A DNA stretch of 63,219 nt, filler included, from Octopus bimaculoides (GCF_001194135.2; 6 parts of 5 records of this genome joined end to end with filler, not necessarily neighbours in it); one strand, 5' to 3'; numbered from the whole stretch's first letter, positions 1,701 to 48,665 are shown. The notes: generated from the letters alone by a model not told the origin. Translations and numbers: made by a program.

Positions 1701-2316
1701 AAGTAGTTGTATGCTGTCAACTTAATGTGACAGTCCCCTGAAGGGAATAATACCGCTGTTGGTTAGACCTAGGAAGCTGCACCGCTTCCTGTCGGCCTTG
1801 ACACTTTTTCTGTGTCCTTAGGCGGTGCAGCTTCCTAGGTCTAACCAACAGTAGTACTATTCCCTCCTTCAGGGGACTGTCACATTAAGTTGAGAACATA
1901 CAACTACTTCATCGTATCACTACTGCATAAATCTCTCTGAGAGATTTAGAAATGTATTATTTCTAAATTTGAAATCAGTGAATGTATTTCTCTAGAATTA
2001 TTATATGTTCACAAGAGCTTGACAGGCATCTTCGACTTGCAGGTATGCTACTCCAGACTGATGACGAGAAAAGACCCAGAAACATGTCTCTGGATGCAGG
2101 TTTAGCTGGGTGGAGGTGCTTGTCTCTCCCTTGTAAACATAAAGACACAGAAAATATGTCAAGGCCGACAGGAAGCGGTGCAGCTTCCTAGATCTAACCA
2201 ACAGTAGTATTATTCCCTTCAGGGGACTGTCACATTAAGTTGACAGCCTACAAGTACTTCATCGTATCACTACTGCATAAATCTCTTTGAGAGGTTTAGA
2301 AATGTATTATTTCTAA
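1701..2316 (+). mobile_element. Non-autonomous PLE-pLTR-like or retrozyme-like element with direct plus inverted terminal repeat
   Basis: Direct repeat 1822-1966 / 2175-2316 (period ~350). 1701-1815 is the reverse complement of 2145-2259. An HHR lies between the direct repeats. Confidence 0.7.
2052..2094 (+). ncRNA. Minimal type I hammerhead ribozyme
   Basis: TCCAGA-CTGATGA-cgagaaaagaccca-GAAA-CATGTC-TCTGGA: perfect 6-bp helix I, intact core, palindromic ACAUGU helix III, GUC cleavage triplet (C at 2088). Confidence 0.75.
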
Positions 2317-5300
2317 TATTTATTACTTACTGAGTGAGAGCCATACTACAGAGCTTGTATCATCTTATTTCACTCAAACTACCGACTTTAATTCATTTTC
2401 TTAAAACTATACTTCTTTTAATCTCCACGTGTTAAAATTATATCGACATAGCATAGACGTAACTGCATATTTTGTCGTTTGACCTGGAATTTTTACCAAA
2501 ACTTAGTAAGAATCCGTAGTGTTTTTTTGTTGTACTGGGCTTTCTTCAAAGCGATGCGCATAACGTCTTAGATCATAAGAAGTTAATACTTCCATATTTT
2601 TTTTTACTGAATCTCCATATCTTGCTGCCATTTATTCTCTATTCAAGCAACATAGAACACCACGAACGCGGACCACTAAGAAAGAAGCCACGGCTACTTC
2701 ATCCGAGGATTATTTCATTTACTCATAAGTAAAATTATATGTTTCTCGTACAGGGCATTATTAATTTCTTCAATATGTCAGTTAGTATGGGGTTAGGCTT
2801 GATGTCGGGTGTTTATATACGTTATTTATGATGAAATAATCAATGACGTCATGTCTAGAATTAAGCAGTCAGATAAGCGAATGAAAAAAATGAAAAAAAA
2901 AAAAAAAAAAAAAAAAAAAAGAAAGAAAACCACGTCCGTTTATACTATAGACAGCAACGAATGCTAATTACTTAGTGTAAGATTTTTGTGATAAATGCGA
3001 AAAATATTATTTTTTATTAATGCTAGACTGCAAAACTCTTAGGAATAATATACCAGCTCTTCATAGTGGTAAACTTTAACTCCTGACATTTTGCCATTTA
3101 CCTGAAGGTGTGGCTGAAAAGTCTATGTGTGTGTGTGTGTGAGTGAATGATTGAGTGAGTGTGTGTGTGAGTGTGTGCGCCTGTATGTGAGAAGTAGTAG
3201 TAAGAAATACTGGCATTATTGTGAGTCACTGACACTTCGGCCCGAAGTCAAATGTGTTATTTACTTGACTAGGATTCTCTAATGAAATTCGAACTATCAG
3301 CTCACAGGTTTTAGACGCTCCCTATTTACAGCCCATGAAGATTTGGTATTTATTTAAGTATCACATTCAACACCAAACACCACTTCAAAATATTTAGTTA
3401 TCTTAGCTGATACACAATAAACCAGTTATGCAACAGCCTTTAGATAAATCTCTTGTGTTTTATGACAAATCTACATAATACATTATTTTGTAAATTTTTA
3501 TTAGTAAAGAACAGCAAAAATAAGACTACAAATAAGCTAGTCATTCCATATATCGCCAGGGAATTGTATCGTATTTCAAATCACCTTTGATATTGCTCGG
3601 TAACTATGGAAACCGACAATTTCTCTTTTAGTTTCCTTCAATTACATATTTCAGACTCTATTCGCAACAATGATCTTCATTTGCTTCCTCCAAAACGTTG
3701 AACACCAGTTTTCAATTATTCACTTGTAAAACTTTAGCTCCAGACCTGCCATAAACAAGAAGACCTATGATCAAACGTTCCACTGATGACCATCAACTCA
3801 TTTGCTTAGACATAGAGCAAACAGCTTCATTATTCAGTCATTATTTTCTGCTGTTGTTTCGCCCTACATCACCTTTAGTACTACAGTATTGTAATCAAAG
3901 GTGGTCATTCAATATTCGTTAAGATTTTCATATATTTGAAAATGGATTGTAGAGCACTCAGATGTATGTGATTAAAAGGTTTGATTTGAAAGAAAGTGGT
4001 TTTGAGTTCCGTCTCAGAGCACGTCATTTATACTCAAGTTAACTATTGTTACCACGAAGCCATGGAAGTGAAAATGGTGGATGGAAATTGAAAACTATGC
4101 AAAGGCTTGTCGAGTGTGCACCGTCGCTAAGTTGACAGTATTTGAAAAACGATGCTCACTGTTTATTTATCACAGTCTGTCGAACATAGAAGTTCGAGAA
4201 ATTGTGATGAGTGAGACAAGTACCGTATCGAAAATAGGTGCTGGAATCATTATTAAAGACTAAAACTTTTCAAGGTGATGGCCCACCTGATCTATGATCG
4301 AAACAAAAAAAAAAAATATTCATCGTAAATTTCTATCAATCATTTTCCTTCATTCAGTTTAGTGTTACTAAATTGCTTTTGCAAAATTCTTCATTACTTA
4401 CTTCTCCACAATTTACCAATTTATTCACCACATATTTTTCATTGAACTAGTAGATCTAGCCAGTCTTTCATATAATCTTTAATTAATTATCTAGCTTAAA
4501 CTGCTCTACGAAACCTTTCGTAATTCAACTTCTGTTCCTTCATTTTCTATCACCAATCAATATATGATGCACTCTTTCTCATGATTTAAATTTTATACTC
4601 CGGAACAAGATCACCATATACTAGTTAATTTCCTTATACGCGACTTAATTTTATATCGACTTTGATCATGCAAAATTTATAGTTTTCACTCCAATTATCA
4701 CATACGTGGGGATAAAATATTAATTTGTATTTTCCAAATAATTCCAGGCACAAGGCACATGCACTCTTTTTATTTCGAATCCACTTTGATCACTCAAAAA
4801 GCAAGATATTTACACCAATTATTGCTCACATATAGATGAAATCAAATATTAGTTTGAATTTTCTAGGCAAAACTTGCTAGTGCCTTCCGCAAGAAAATTA
4901 ATGGCGTGTACGAGCCGAAACATGTTTTATGAGAAATCGATGTGGCATCGCTGACACTGCTCTTACTTCATTCTATAATTAATTGGCTCTGAAAAATAAA
5001 ATATTTCTTCCTTCTTAATGTAAAAAAGATGTAGCTTGCATTGGTAATTATAAGATTGTGCAATACATATGCATATATGAATTAGATGGTGGTGATGATA
5101 ATTTACTTGCAGATTTTCGAAGGAATTCCCAGGATCCATTAAAAGGTAACCTATTTTAGCTTCCCTGTGCGGAATATGCACAAAGAGGTGCAGAAGCCAC
5201 TATGATGTTCATAAATACCTTTATAATTGTATATCAGTGGATACATGTGAACACACACACACATACACACACAAACACACACACGTCTATCAATCTTTAT

Positions 5301-5574
5301 CTCTCTCTCACTCTCTCTCTCTCTCACACTTTCTCTCTCTCTCTCTCTCTCTCTCTCTCTCTCTATATATATATATATATATATATATATATATATATAT
5401 ATATATACACGCACACATGTACGCACACACATACACATGTACGCACACACATACGCGCGCGCGCATAGAGGTATAGATATATGTATAACAAAAATACGGA
5501 CAGAATAAATCACATCTTTAATTGTAGAATTCATCGTACAAAGCCGACAATAGTTTCTGTTGTGTCAATATATA

Positions 5575-46885: not shown

Positions 46886-46908
46886 ACAACCACAAGCTAG
46901 TGATTATT

Positions 46909-46950
46909 TCACACTGAAGACGGATAACATCCAGAAACCTAGGTCTGTGA
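46909..46950 (+). ncRNA. Type I hammerhead ribozyme
   Basis: TCACA-CTGAAGA-c-GGAT-aac-ATCC-a-GAAA-CCTAGGTC-TGTGA: perfect 5-bp helix I, 4-bp helix II, palindromic ACCUAGGU helix III, GUC triplet (C at 46945). Confidence 0.8.
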
Positions 46951-48665
46951 GTGTCACGTAAGGCTAGGGATGCGAGCGATGACCTCTCTTGCAAATGCCA
47001 CACGGATACAAACTCTGTGTCAATAGCCAGCTTGGAAAGACGTTTCCCTGGGACTAAATCAACAATAACATCGTCCTTTATAGGACTTCCACATTCTATT
47101 GGCATAAAAACATTACTGGAATTACGTATGCTTATGTCTATGCTTTTGATGATTTCCATGTAAGAATGTATAAATTCTAATGTATATATGTCGATGTGCA
47201 TATATCTATGTTATGAATTTATTTTTCAAATTCTTCACTAATACGAAATGCCTGTCTCCACCCCAGACACAACTTTCAACATCCCGGTAGTCCTGTATAT
47301 TTTTTTATGTATATATGTATGTTAATGTCTGCACATACAATGTGTGCGACTGTATGTCCATTATTGTGTGTGTGCTTGTCTCTGTGTGTGTCTGTATGTG
47401 TTTGTGTCTCTGTGTGTTTCCAGCAATTCCACTTGCAACACACTAATTATTCTTAAAGGCATTCACTGCAGTTAGAATATTATCTACCAACACATAGGGT
47501 ACATATACACTATAAAGCCTATTGCATAACCACATTAATGTATATTTGTCAGCCAGGATAAATCTTAGTCCACGTCTCTCCCTTCCTTTCTATCCACTCT
47601 CGCCCACTCCCACTCCGTATCTCTCTCTTTACGTATCACACAATATCTGACTATCATCCAGTCTCTCTGTCTGACAATCTCGTTATAGATCATACTGTGC
47701 GTTTGTGTAGTTTTTGTTTAACTCCTTCTCACCATCTTCCTTATCTTCACCTTCTTTCTCATCCTCATCCTCATCTTCCGTCTCTGTTTCCTTTATCATA
47801 AACCATGAACAGACATACAAGCACTCCACAGGCAAATGTAAATATACACAAACAAACACGTATGCATGTGTACGTTACTCTGTTCTCACATACATATACA
47901 GGCAGGGTAAAATATATAATATACTAACATAAATGTATATATACATGTACGGATACAACTATACACGTTCATAAATGGACTGGTATGCATATATATATAT
48001 ATATATATAATTCTTACATATATGTATATATAAATATATATATATATATATATATATATATATTCGCGTTAAACATTGCAGCAGCTGCGATACACGTTAG
48101 TGTTGTACGAAGAGTCAATTTGCAAATCAGCAAACTATCGCTGCCATCCGCCATGTTTTATTATTCAACATCCGGTATTGTAAGCTCTGTCAGTTTATTA
48201 ATTGACCCTACCTACTTATCTCCTTATCTAACGTAATCTACCGGATTCCGAGAGGAATATTAAACTTTATCACTATTACATTATAGCAACACACACACAC
48301 ACACGCGCGCGCGCACACACACACACACACAACGCACACAAACACACACACACACACGCACGAACGCACGCACGCACGCACGCACGCACACACACACACA
48401 CACACACACATACACACACACACACACACGCACACACAACTGTTTGAAACGTTCAGGTTAACATACAAGCATATGTACATCCATTCACAGTCATTAACAC
48501 TAATAGTAATAGTAATAAATATTTTAAGAATATGTCTAGAATATTTTTTCCGCACAGTGTTTAGTAAAGGACTCAACAAAATAAAATGATTCAATTTCAA
48601 GTCGATAATATAATAATATATAAAAGAAGTTGAACGAAATTGCAATTAATAAATACTTTTCTCTA

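Follow-up and report, generated by a model that had tools for sequence, protein, structure and literature searches.

The window, by which we mean the whole stretch of 63,219 nucleotides (filler included) from Octopus bimaculoides (GCF_001194135.2), carries hammerhead ribozyme motifs in several unrelated repeats, among them a 350-bp non-coding unit (family A), the end of a Hydra-clade Penelope-like element or PLE (element B) and the families C, D and E (Table 1). The repeat finder was swamped by microsatellites, and the repeat geometry was taken from a masked self-BLAST. The first-pass annotation had counted seven motifs in 45 kb, and we found all seven, displaced by about 15 nt at most. The CTGANGA...GAAAC...GTH core is intact at 2058(+), 20596(-), 46879(-) and 46914(+), and these four intact cores represent three insertions because the pair at 46.8-46.9 kb is a single one. 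The remaining cores have decayed: two changes in the 5' core box at 22805(+), an altered G16.2 at 29125(+) and an altered G8 at 35856(+). The annotation had missed a candidate at 35547(+) and, at 13424(+) and 13273(-), two further members of the family of 35856; the cores of the latter two are likewise damaged. Other CTGANGA sites (e.g. 18187, 31525, 34593 and 35165), being without a proper second core box, were dropped. Most window copies carry core or helix damage.

The annotation had been right to see hammerheads of type I, their helix III palindromic, in end structures of the Penelope type, and helix III is self-complementary in all four intact cores. Its "at least four" unrelated families become five, with no BLAST likeness among them. 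It had put five motifs in repeat arms, a number that falls to four of seven, with the one at 2058 sitting between the arms of its own element. The matching helix I that it had reported is a clean stem of 5-6 bp at 2058, 46879 and 46914, whereas at 20596 it consists of 2 bp, an internal loop and 4 bp. Hammerheads numbering thousands per genome have been published for several animals (PMC4209133; PMC7229834, in part), so seven motifs in 45 kb need no special explanation.

Comparison with dinucleotide shuffles, one of the checks that had been proposed, gave higher motif counts in the real sequence. The repeat-masked window was set against 300 local shuffles, with descriptors fixed after the motifs had been inspected. 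The core alone was observed four times against a shuffle mean of 0.42 (1 of 300 shuffles reached four), and the core with a self-complementary helix III four times against 0.09, with no shuffle in 300 reaching four or even three. When at least five of six pairs in helix I were demanded together with the core, three sites were left against 0.0 (0/300), and with a helix II of at least 3 bp added only the 46.8-46.9 kb pair passed (2 against 0.04; 0/300). The loosest descriptor settings were matched by 12 and 42 of the 300 shuffles. A search of the window with Rfam, also proposed at the outset, produced no hits at the gathering score, and the E-value search had no hammerhead among the best 150 of 277 matches. 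None of ten motif-sized folds was clearly better than its shuffles (z from +0.74 to -1.86).

Table 1. Coordinates of the hammerhead-bearing elements and their parts in the window.
Feature	Position	Strand	Remarks
Element A, left target-site duplication, 12 bp	1689..1700	+	identical to 2314-2325; longest word common to both flanks
Element A, inverted 5'-truncated piece	1701..1820	-	reverse complement of 2140-2259, 93% over 120 bp
Element A, partial upstream unit, without hammerhead	1822..1966	+	copy of 2175-2316, 92% over 150 bp, period 350
Element A, full unit, retrozyme-like monomer	1967..2316	+	350 bp, non-coding, 40.6% GC
Hammerhead A	2052..2094	+	helix I 2052-57/2089-94, 6 WC pairs; core 2058-64; helix II 2065-78
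Element A, right target-site duplication, 12 bp	2314..2325	+	
Family C element	13165..13654	.	inverted arms 13165-13532, 72% palindrome; 66% to 35814-36090
Element B, inverted 5' copy of 3' terminal repeat	20400..21046	-	73-76% to 21935-22919
Hammerhead B1	20512..20603	-	intact core 20596-20590; 54-nt helix II region; predicted cut after 20522
Element B, C-terminal ORF, 5'-truncated, frameshifted	21050..21845	+	linker CxCX5C and GIY-YIG endonuclease
Element B, 3' terminal repeat	21935..22919	+	decayed hammerhead B2 at 22805-22879
Hammerhead E, decayed minimal type, solitary	29118..29157	+	beside (TA)n
Extra inverted-repeat element with candidate hammerhead 35547(+)	35421..35659	.	
Family C copy	35814..36090	+	hammerhead 35856-35933, G8 changed, 59-nt helix II region, palindromic helix III
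Element D	46761..47030	.	head-to-head 5'-truncated arms, 84%, one common 3' end

Element B and the smaller families

On its sequence, element B is a 5'-truncated coding Hydra-clade PLE and not a non-autonomous element. A full HMMER protein search with its ORF returned 4006 matches at E ≤ 0.001, earlier word-based searches having returned 0 and 1, and among nine long relatives examined DKT is present in seven, RWK or RWR in six and CxCX5C in six; the RT is absent from the truncated copy. Pfam gave nothing useful for three ORF fragments, that of B included, and GIY-YIG below the cut-off in one of four long relatives. The Hydra-type identity follows from the C-terminal GIY-YIG domain and CxCX5C linker, together with the 3' hammerhead (within about 120 nt of the element's 3' end), the inverted 5'-truncated copy and the (TA)n target, here a one-sided extension of some 80 bp on the inverted copy that ends at a short (TA)n run. 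All of these are features of Hydra-clade PLEs, Hydra-1_Obim included, with (TA)n at one end (Craig et al. 2021, PMC8557442, in the parts drawn on here). By eye, 41 of 61 residues of the ORF are identical to Hydra-1_Obim, from which B is nevertheless separate as a family, with a 3' region that is longer (about 680 bp once a common dispersed SINE-like repeat, which interrupts the 3' repeat at ~22175-22575, is discounted). Helix III of B1 is self-complementary with wobbles, and the B hammerhead differs from the Hydra ones in its long helix II region and interrupted helix I; in the portion of File S2 of PMC8557442 used here, Hydra hammerheads have short helices II and long ones occur only in non-Hydra PLE-X1 elements.

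Family C has an interrupted helix I and a long helix II in common with B, a likeness judged by eye only. Its element at 13 kb holds decayed long-helix-II hammerheads at 13273(-) and 13424(+), and the palindromic helix III is invariant in a three-way alignment of the family. The two hammerheads of element D, at 46879(-) and 46914(+), have intact cores and as a pair match the full three-helix descriptor; 31 of 32 cells are paired in a 16-pair structure drawn from the same two copies, with no two-sided change, and the predicted cut in D falls after 46945. Opposite-strand hammerhead pairs 100-700 bp apart have been described (PMC4209133), and D and C are alike in this. Hammerhead E has an unpaired base after the core, a 4-bp helix II closed by G-C, no loop 3 and a 3-bp helix I, and in these traits, as in being solitary, it resembles the min-HHR of metazoan PLE end repeats (Cervera and de la Pena 2014, PMC4209133), from which it differs in its decay at 16.2; its parent element was not found in the window. 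A and D depart from the min-HHR in having C.A at the helix II base in place of G10.1-C11.1, a variant that also occurs in File S2 of Craig et al. (PLE-X1_cBra; PMC8557442, in part). The 35547 candidate combines an intact 5' core and a 5-bp helix II with an atypical helix III and an ambiguous helix I register.

The alignments of B, C and D, with two or three copies each, hold no usable covariation, and an unbiased stem scan of those of B and C found no hammerhead helix common to all copies. No candidate target duplication of B, C, D or the 35547 element is longer than 4-6 bp (5-6 bp in B), which is too weak to be accepted. The smaller families C, D and E, like the 35547 candidate, are likely pieces of the ends of either PLEs or retrozymes.

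Family A in the window and in public sequencing runs

The window copy of family A comprises 1.4 units with one hammerhead, and the inverted piece in front of them has a 3' end about 55 nt short of the unit end. The second core of the hammerhead reads GAAAC-AT-GTC, with a predicted cut after 2088; its helix II is damaged, so that the window copy fails the full descriptor. No LTR, PBS or PPT was found in element A, the latter two being judged by eye only. Treated as a circle, the 350-bp unit folds better than shuffles (z -2.2; 2/100), and its minus strand folds better still (z -3.5, against the plus strand). A fold of the hairpin that surrounds the hammerhead has no advantage over its shuffles (35/200).

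Published metazoan non-LTR retrozymes have units of 150-450 bp, those of mussel 350-390 (PMC7229834, in part). Family A resembles them, as described there and in sections of Li, Clavereau and Pollet (2026, bioRxiv), in its 350-bp non-coding unit of less than 50% GC, its type I hammerhead with a 6-bp helix I and a short palindromic helix III, its head-to-tail organisation, its target duplication of more than 4 bp and the presence of PLEs in the same genome. In the same literature, a helix II with a mismatched basal pair is on record too (axolotl, U.U). What sets A apart from the published retrozymes is that its copies are dispersed and mostly truncated on the 5' side, share a fixed 3' end and come with a 5' piece in inverted orientation; moreover, those retrozymes are abundant RNAs, whereas the RNA of A is sparse and A has been seen without an array of two complete hammerheads.

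For family A only, reads and contigs from one DNA run (X2) and two RNA runs (X21 and X22, chosen by species label only, no RNA run being listed for 1660-2360 itself) were placed on 1930-2350 (421 bp). Family A is very abundant: 4125 X2 contigs fall on these 421 bp, with a summed depth of 1e5-1e6, which is not a copy number, against 44.5 on the unique flank. The majority letters, C at 2069 and T at 2076 (each above 99% of the X2 depth), restore a 3-bp helix II, GAG/CTC, on a C.A base, and the full descriptor is then passed. Changes at 2084 and 2085, which are not phased and which jointly leave helix III palindromic, occur at matching levels in X2 (48 contigs each) and X21 (34/108 reads each); in X22 the counts differ (25 and 17 of 79). 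The core and helix I are free of differences among the 40 listed (there are 74 more). The family ends at 1966/2316 with mixed AT-rich flanks, and in DNA the loose ends on its 3' side are of mixed sequence (agreement 0.47). The head-to-tail junction 1966/1967 is crossed by X2 contigs, that is by DNA of another sample, and by RNA reads of X21 and X22; X2 depth is near 1e5 throughout 1967-1991, behind 1971, 19 X2 contigs continue into a divergent version of the start of the unit, and X2 contig 9 covers 1971-2184. RNA reads cross 1967 with one extra base in 34/128 and 37/143 cases in the two runs. Taken together, the abundance, the restored helix II and the junction recurring in DNA and RNA fit a non-LTR retrozyme.

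RNA reads on the stretch are sparse, with 701 of 12.9 million and 688 of 12.0 million (about 55 per million) on both strands, and 0.8 of them continue into unlike sequence, as expected of read-through in host transcripts. RNA read ends at the predicted sites had been put forward as a sign of cleavage; on 1930-2350 they do not accumulate at the cut site of A in these two runs, whose library selection is not recorded. No locus with two consecutive complete hammerheads was found for any window family, and none of the contigs listed extends over two. RNA libraries such as these may lose small circles. Joints that go back 350 were left out of any count of circles, since 1930-1966 is itself duplicated in the reference. 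An RNA-over-DNA excess of A>G and T>C was not ascribed to editing, given that A>T differences show the same behaviour and that expressed loci are inseparable. Three loci from a metagenome pattern scan belong to another tandem hammerhead family, have no BLAST likeness to the masked window and were not taken as copies of A.

Origin and movement of the elements

Based on these results, we think it probable that the window holds relics of type I hammerheads in the 3' ends of five to six unrelated repeats, likely all inserted by PLEs, with one pair flanking a truncated coding Hydra-clade PLE and one motif in a high-copy 350-bp unit that is likely a non-LTR retrozyme. The window copies are likely inert, save a possibly competent one at 46914. 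The retrozyme class is already known, also from mussel; no cephalopod retrozyme was described in the literature searched, and Repbase, Dfam or paper supplements may list these families. Family A is likely an undescribed member of this class, with self-cleavage predicted. The non-autonomous, retrozyme-like elements of the first-pass annotation would be represented by family A (1.7-2.3 kb), and not by the 20.6/22.8 kb pair, which flanks the endonuclease end of a coding element.

A different reading, which we find unlikely, would see in every motif, that of A included, the end of a coding PLE after truncation or gutting, with the 350-bp unit a by-product of an unseen autonomous parent. This does hold for B, retrozymes are derived from PLE end repeats in parts of a recent preprint (bioRxiv 10.64898/2026.07.22.740005), and the depth of A climbs towards the 3' end, with a dip at 2035-2049. 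The loose ends at 2045, 1990 and 1971, however, lead into diverged versions of the unit's own sequence and not into an ORF, among the 24 of 451 ends listed, and a rarer ORF-bearing parent could be hidden among the others; the junction is common to many contigs of another sample and to RNA reads, and six-frame translation of the unit revealed no PLE-like ORF or remnant of one.

As to the mover, the annotation had named the PLEs seen in the window, whose ORFs turn out to be broken remnants with no sequence in common with A, C, D or E. This would suit a spread independent of PLEs, with A a retrozyme-like SINE that was either carried by a LINE (RTE, CR1, Dong) or multiplied by DNA-level amplification, and LINE twin priming also yields inverted 5' pieces. 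We regard this explanation of A as quite improbable, since its 3' end has no poly(A) or simple-repeat tail, and a partial tandem with an inverted truncated copy and a one-sided extension is a published PLE signature (PMC8557442, in part); LINEs and PLEs are both left open in the relevant part of PMC7229834, and satellite-type amplification is opposed by the target duplication, the fixed end and the mixed flanks. An origin of the motifs by chance in DNA that is rich in AT and laden with repeats is scarcely credible and already refuted for A, B and D: the lack of Rfam matches, the unremarkable motif folds and the loose descriptors would agree with it, but the stricter counts were reached by no shuffle, the majority letters of A improve its structure, and the B motif lies as far from the 3' end as published for its clade (PMC8557442, in part).

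Family A was likely moved by Penelope machinery. Tandem units would be transcribed, two hammerheads would pair through the palindromic helix III to give one cut per unit, and the 350-nt RNA may be ligated into a circle. Supplied in trans, the reverse transcriptase-endonuclease of a PLE would make a nick in AT-rich DNA; copying would begin about 225 nt downstream of the cut site and pass through an intact cut site for some 1.4 units, on an uncut tandem or a re-ligated circle, and a template switch would give the inverted 5' piece. Element B is a PLE insertion of the usual sort, truncated on its 5' side and accompanied by an inverted copy of its end. The geometry agrees with published PLE insertions (PMC8557442, in part); against the scheme counts that PLE insertion in vitro did not require hammerhead cleavage (PMC11167929, in part). 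More tentatively, and on balance doubtfully, A could be an undescribed cephalopod retrozyme of thousands of copies, a dispersed "SINE of Penelope" that has kept the entire PLE footprint (target duplication of 12 bp, a copy longer than one unit, the inverted 5' piece and a fixed start some 225 nt beyond the cut site) because the PLE enzyme rolls round a self-cut, re-ligated 350-nt circle.

Hammerheads in Penelope end repeats and retrozymes are both established, and it is to be expected that several should occur close together in an animal genome rich in repeats. Family A would extend retrozymes to octopus, with one insertion that shows a PLE footprint and a clean target duplication. PLEs have been proposed as the mover of animal retrozymes, with the mechanism left open (PMC7229834; Li, Clavereau and Pollet 2026, bioRxiv; both in part), and the high copy number of A and its fixed 3' end bring both the template (uncut tandem or circle) and the partner enzyme within reach of a test. 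If the rolling-circle proposal is true, the long-helix-II hammerheads of B and C would be a new structural variant in PLEs, and family A would document directly, in a genome, a route of retrozyme transposition that has been proposed but is unproven.

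Hammerhead motifs in the window

The window is repeat-rich animal DNA (5064 N, with plentiful microsatellite), and the seven hammerhead motifs that the first-pass annotation had read in it are real and all present, with corrections. Four of them, rather than five, lie in repeat arms, as the motif at 2058 sits between the arms of its own element, and family C has two further decayed copies, at 13273(-) and 13424(+), that had been overlooked. The claim of at least four unrelated families holds with five (A-E) plus the candidate at 35547, all without mutual likeness by self-BLAST.

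Repeat elements and hammerhead motifs in the window
Feature	Position (strand)	Description
Element A	1689-2325	flanked on both sides by a 12-bp target duplication; inside, an inverted 120-bp piece, then a 145-bp partial unit, then one complete unit of 350 bp
Element B	20400-22919	inverted 3' repeat copy, abutting truncated ORF, then 3' repeat with SINE-like insert
Family D	46.8-46.9 kb	head-to-head pair with common 3' end
Intact-core hammerhead motifs	2058(+), 20596(-), 46879(-), 46914(+)	
Damaged motif	22805(+)	two 5' core bases altered
Damaged motif	29125(+)	position 16.2 altered
Damaged motif	35856(+)	G8 altered
Inverted-repeat element	35421-35659	atypical hammerhead candidate at 35547(+); top fold among ten motif stretches, z -1.86
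Broken PLE (Penelope-like element) remnants, two	10050-12225 (-), 19432-20400 (-)	84% alike in common part
Broken Hydra-type reverse transcriptase remnant	49050-49854 (-)	
AT-rich near-perfect palindrome	28320-28670	arms 174 bp at 94%, 3 nt apart, amid microsatellites; no hammerhead core
Two-part dispersed SINE-like repeat	13977-14338, 19105-19437, 22175-22575, 33358-33637, 43929-43982, 59863-60039	76-88% between copies

Chance was assessed by 300 rounds of local dinucleotide shuffling on the masked window, using descriptors picked post hoc, with the motifs already inspected. The bare core occurs 4 times against 0.42 in shuffles (1/300 attained 4), the core plus a helix I with at least 5/6 pairs 3 times against 0.0, and the core plus a self-complementary helix III 4 times against 0.09 (0/300 attained 4), so that the shuffle check proposed at first pass came out above expectation. 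Three insertions account for the four intact cores, and a count of 3 under the palindromic helix III rule was likewise attained by 0/300. With helix II added to the descriptor, only the pair at 46.8-46.9 kb still passes; the Rfam check, run on the window, gave no match at gathering score and no hammerhead among the 150 listed of 277 E-value hits, and motif-sized stretches folded no better than shuffled sequence. Since thousands of hammerhead motifs per genome are on record for several animals (PMC4209133, PMC7229834), the density seen here is ordinary.

A coding element and the other families

The non-autonomous, retrozyme-like reading of these elements stands for family A, a non-coding head-to-tail unit, and falls for family B, whose element is a 5'-truncated coding element. 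Its ORF, in which a CxCX5C linker is followed by a GIY-YIG-type end, has 4006 protein matches at E<=0.001, and the nine long matches checked carry DKT (7/9), RWK or RWR (6/9) and CxCX5C (6/9), which are marks of the Hydra clade (Craig et al. 2021, PMC8557442). The nearest named relative noted for this ORF at 21 kb is Hydra-1_Obim (41/61 residues the same, by eye), to which element B is, judging from sequence, a sister family; hammerhead B, whose helix II region spans 54 nt and whose helix I is interrupted, differs from the short Hydra motifs (File S2, Craig et al.). On the match to Hydra-1_Obim, the window is probably octopus DNA. The element is old, as its arms are 73-76% alike, and it is split by one copy of the SINE-like repeat, in which ARAGORN found no tRNA gene.

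For families C, D and E, no link to an ORF or tandem unit was found. Family C shares its plan with B, having a helix II region of 59 nt and a helix I that is interrupted, and is unlike it in sequence; its palindromic helix III is invariant across three copies. In family D, 31/32 cells are paired in the structure drawn from its own two copies, between which there is no two-sided change, and motif E has the form of the minimal hammerhead described by Cervera and de la Pena in 2014 (PMC4209133). Downstream of the cut site predicted for family C, an open frame continues through 35935-36090 and may represent the beginning of a PLE ORF.

The PLE ORFs of the window are broken remnants. We take the two at 10050-12225 and 19432-20400 to be Neptune-like; the former has its Zn-linker and GIY-YIG start twice, and the latter holds, at 19557-19604 (+), a lone 48-bp piece of the one-sided extension of family B, 90% alike to 20456-20503 and inverted relative to it. 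A pattern scan of metagenome contigs also returned one family in which hammerhead-bearing units, 727 and 1021 nt long, are joined head to tail (L002:1-1185 and L001:1-1445; also L003); these units are longer than most published retrozymes and have no BLAST likeness to the window.

Family A as a head-to-tail unit

An ORF search found no PLE ORF in element A. Two RNA read sets (X21, X22), a DNA contig set (X2, from a different sample than the run that best contains the stretch) and a contig set guessed to be RNA (X15) were aligned to 1930-2350 at 80% likeness. Family A is very abundant: 4125 X2 contigs fall on this stretch, with a summed depth, not a copy number, of 1e5-1e6 against 44.5 on unique flank. 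Depth climbs toward the 3' part, and copies stop at 1966/2316, where the flanks are AT-rich and mixed (agreement 0.47). Joining of units head to tail is shared across the family: X2 depth stays at about 1e5 across 1967-1991, 19 contigs run on behind 1971 into the start of a unit in diverged form, and 34/128 and 37/143 RNA reads extend across 1967, adding one base. At 1990 and 2045 the loose ends lead into diverged forms of the unit itself; an ORF-bearing parent may stand behind the family, the loose ends viewed being the 24 listed of 451.

Majority letters at 2069 and 2076 (>99% of depth) give back the 3-bp helix II missing in the window copy. At the base of helix II, C.A prevails in the family (about 89% and 99%); it recurs in family D and is published for PLE-X1_cBra, and an axolotl retrozyme has U.U there (PMC7229834). 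None of the 40 listed differences hits the core or helix I (74 more lie outside the list), and changes at 2084 and 2085, of like frequency (48 X2 contigs each, unphased), jointly preserve the helix III palindrome if they share a copy. Among RNA reads on 1930-2350, A>G and T>C places outnumber those of the DNA run, and variants at 2201 and 1975 are frequent in RNA and scarce in DNA; this may reflect editing or locus-specific expression, indistinguishable here.

Activity and mobilisation of family A

Several observations argue against a live retrozyme. RNA reads on the stretch are few (701 of 12.9 million and 688 of 12.0 million, these totals being a sample of about 6% from each run), come from both strands and mostly continue into unlike sequence; their ends, which the first-pass annotation had wished to see at predicted sites, pile up nowhere (X21, X22; library selection not on record), and no array was seen to carry two complete hammerheads. 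As a circle, the unit folds better than shuffles (z -2.2), its reverse strand gives a stronger signal (z -3.5), and the local hairpin around hammerhead A is no better than shuffles (35/200).

Retrozymes are known in coral, mussel and axolotl (PMC7229834) and have been argued to descend from PLE end repeats (bioRxiv 10.64898/2026.07.22.740005), in a study whose available text includes no mollusc in its sampling and reports that 8/9 dimers tested failed to cleave. For cephalopods, our literature search, with repeat libraries outside its scope, returned only Craig et al., whose tables hold a different Octopus hammerhead; a term search of a 2026 Octopus vulgaris repeat annotation (PMC13282606) gave neither 'ribozyme' nor 'hammerhead'.

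The element A insertion has its 3' end about 225 nt past the predicted cut site, and the copy passes through that site into the preceding unit, so its template would have kept an intact cut site, either as a tandem transcript left uncut or as a circle formed by re-ligation. An anole PLE, as described in the available portion of PMC11167929, starts internally downstream of the hammerhead, enters AT-rich targets with one-sided tails, inserts in vitro without need for hammerhead cleavage, and has no RNA-seq ends at the hammerhead cut site; the combination of partial tandems and an inverted, truncated copy is the signature of PLEs (PMC8557442). Given these parallels, and the partial tandem and inverted copy of PLE type in element A, we favour the reading that this element would have been moved by a PLE in trans.
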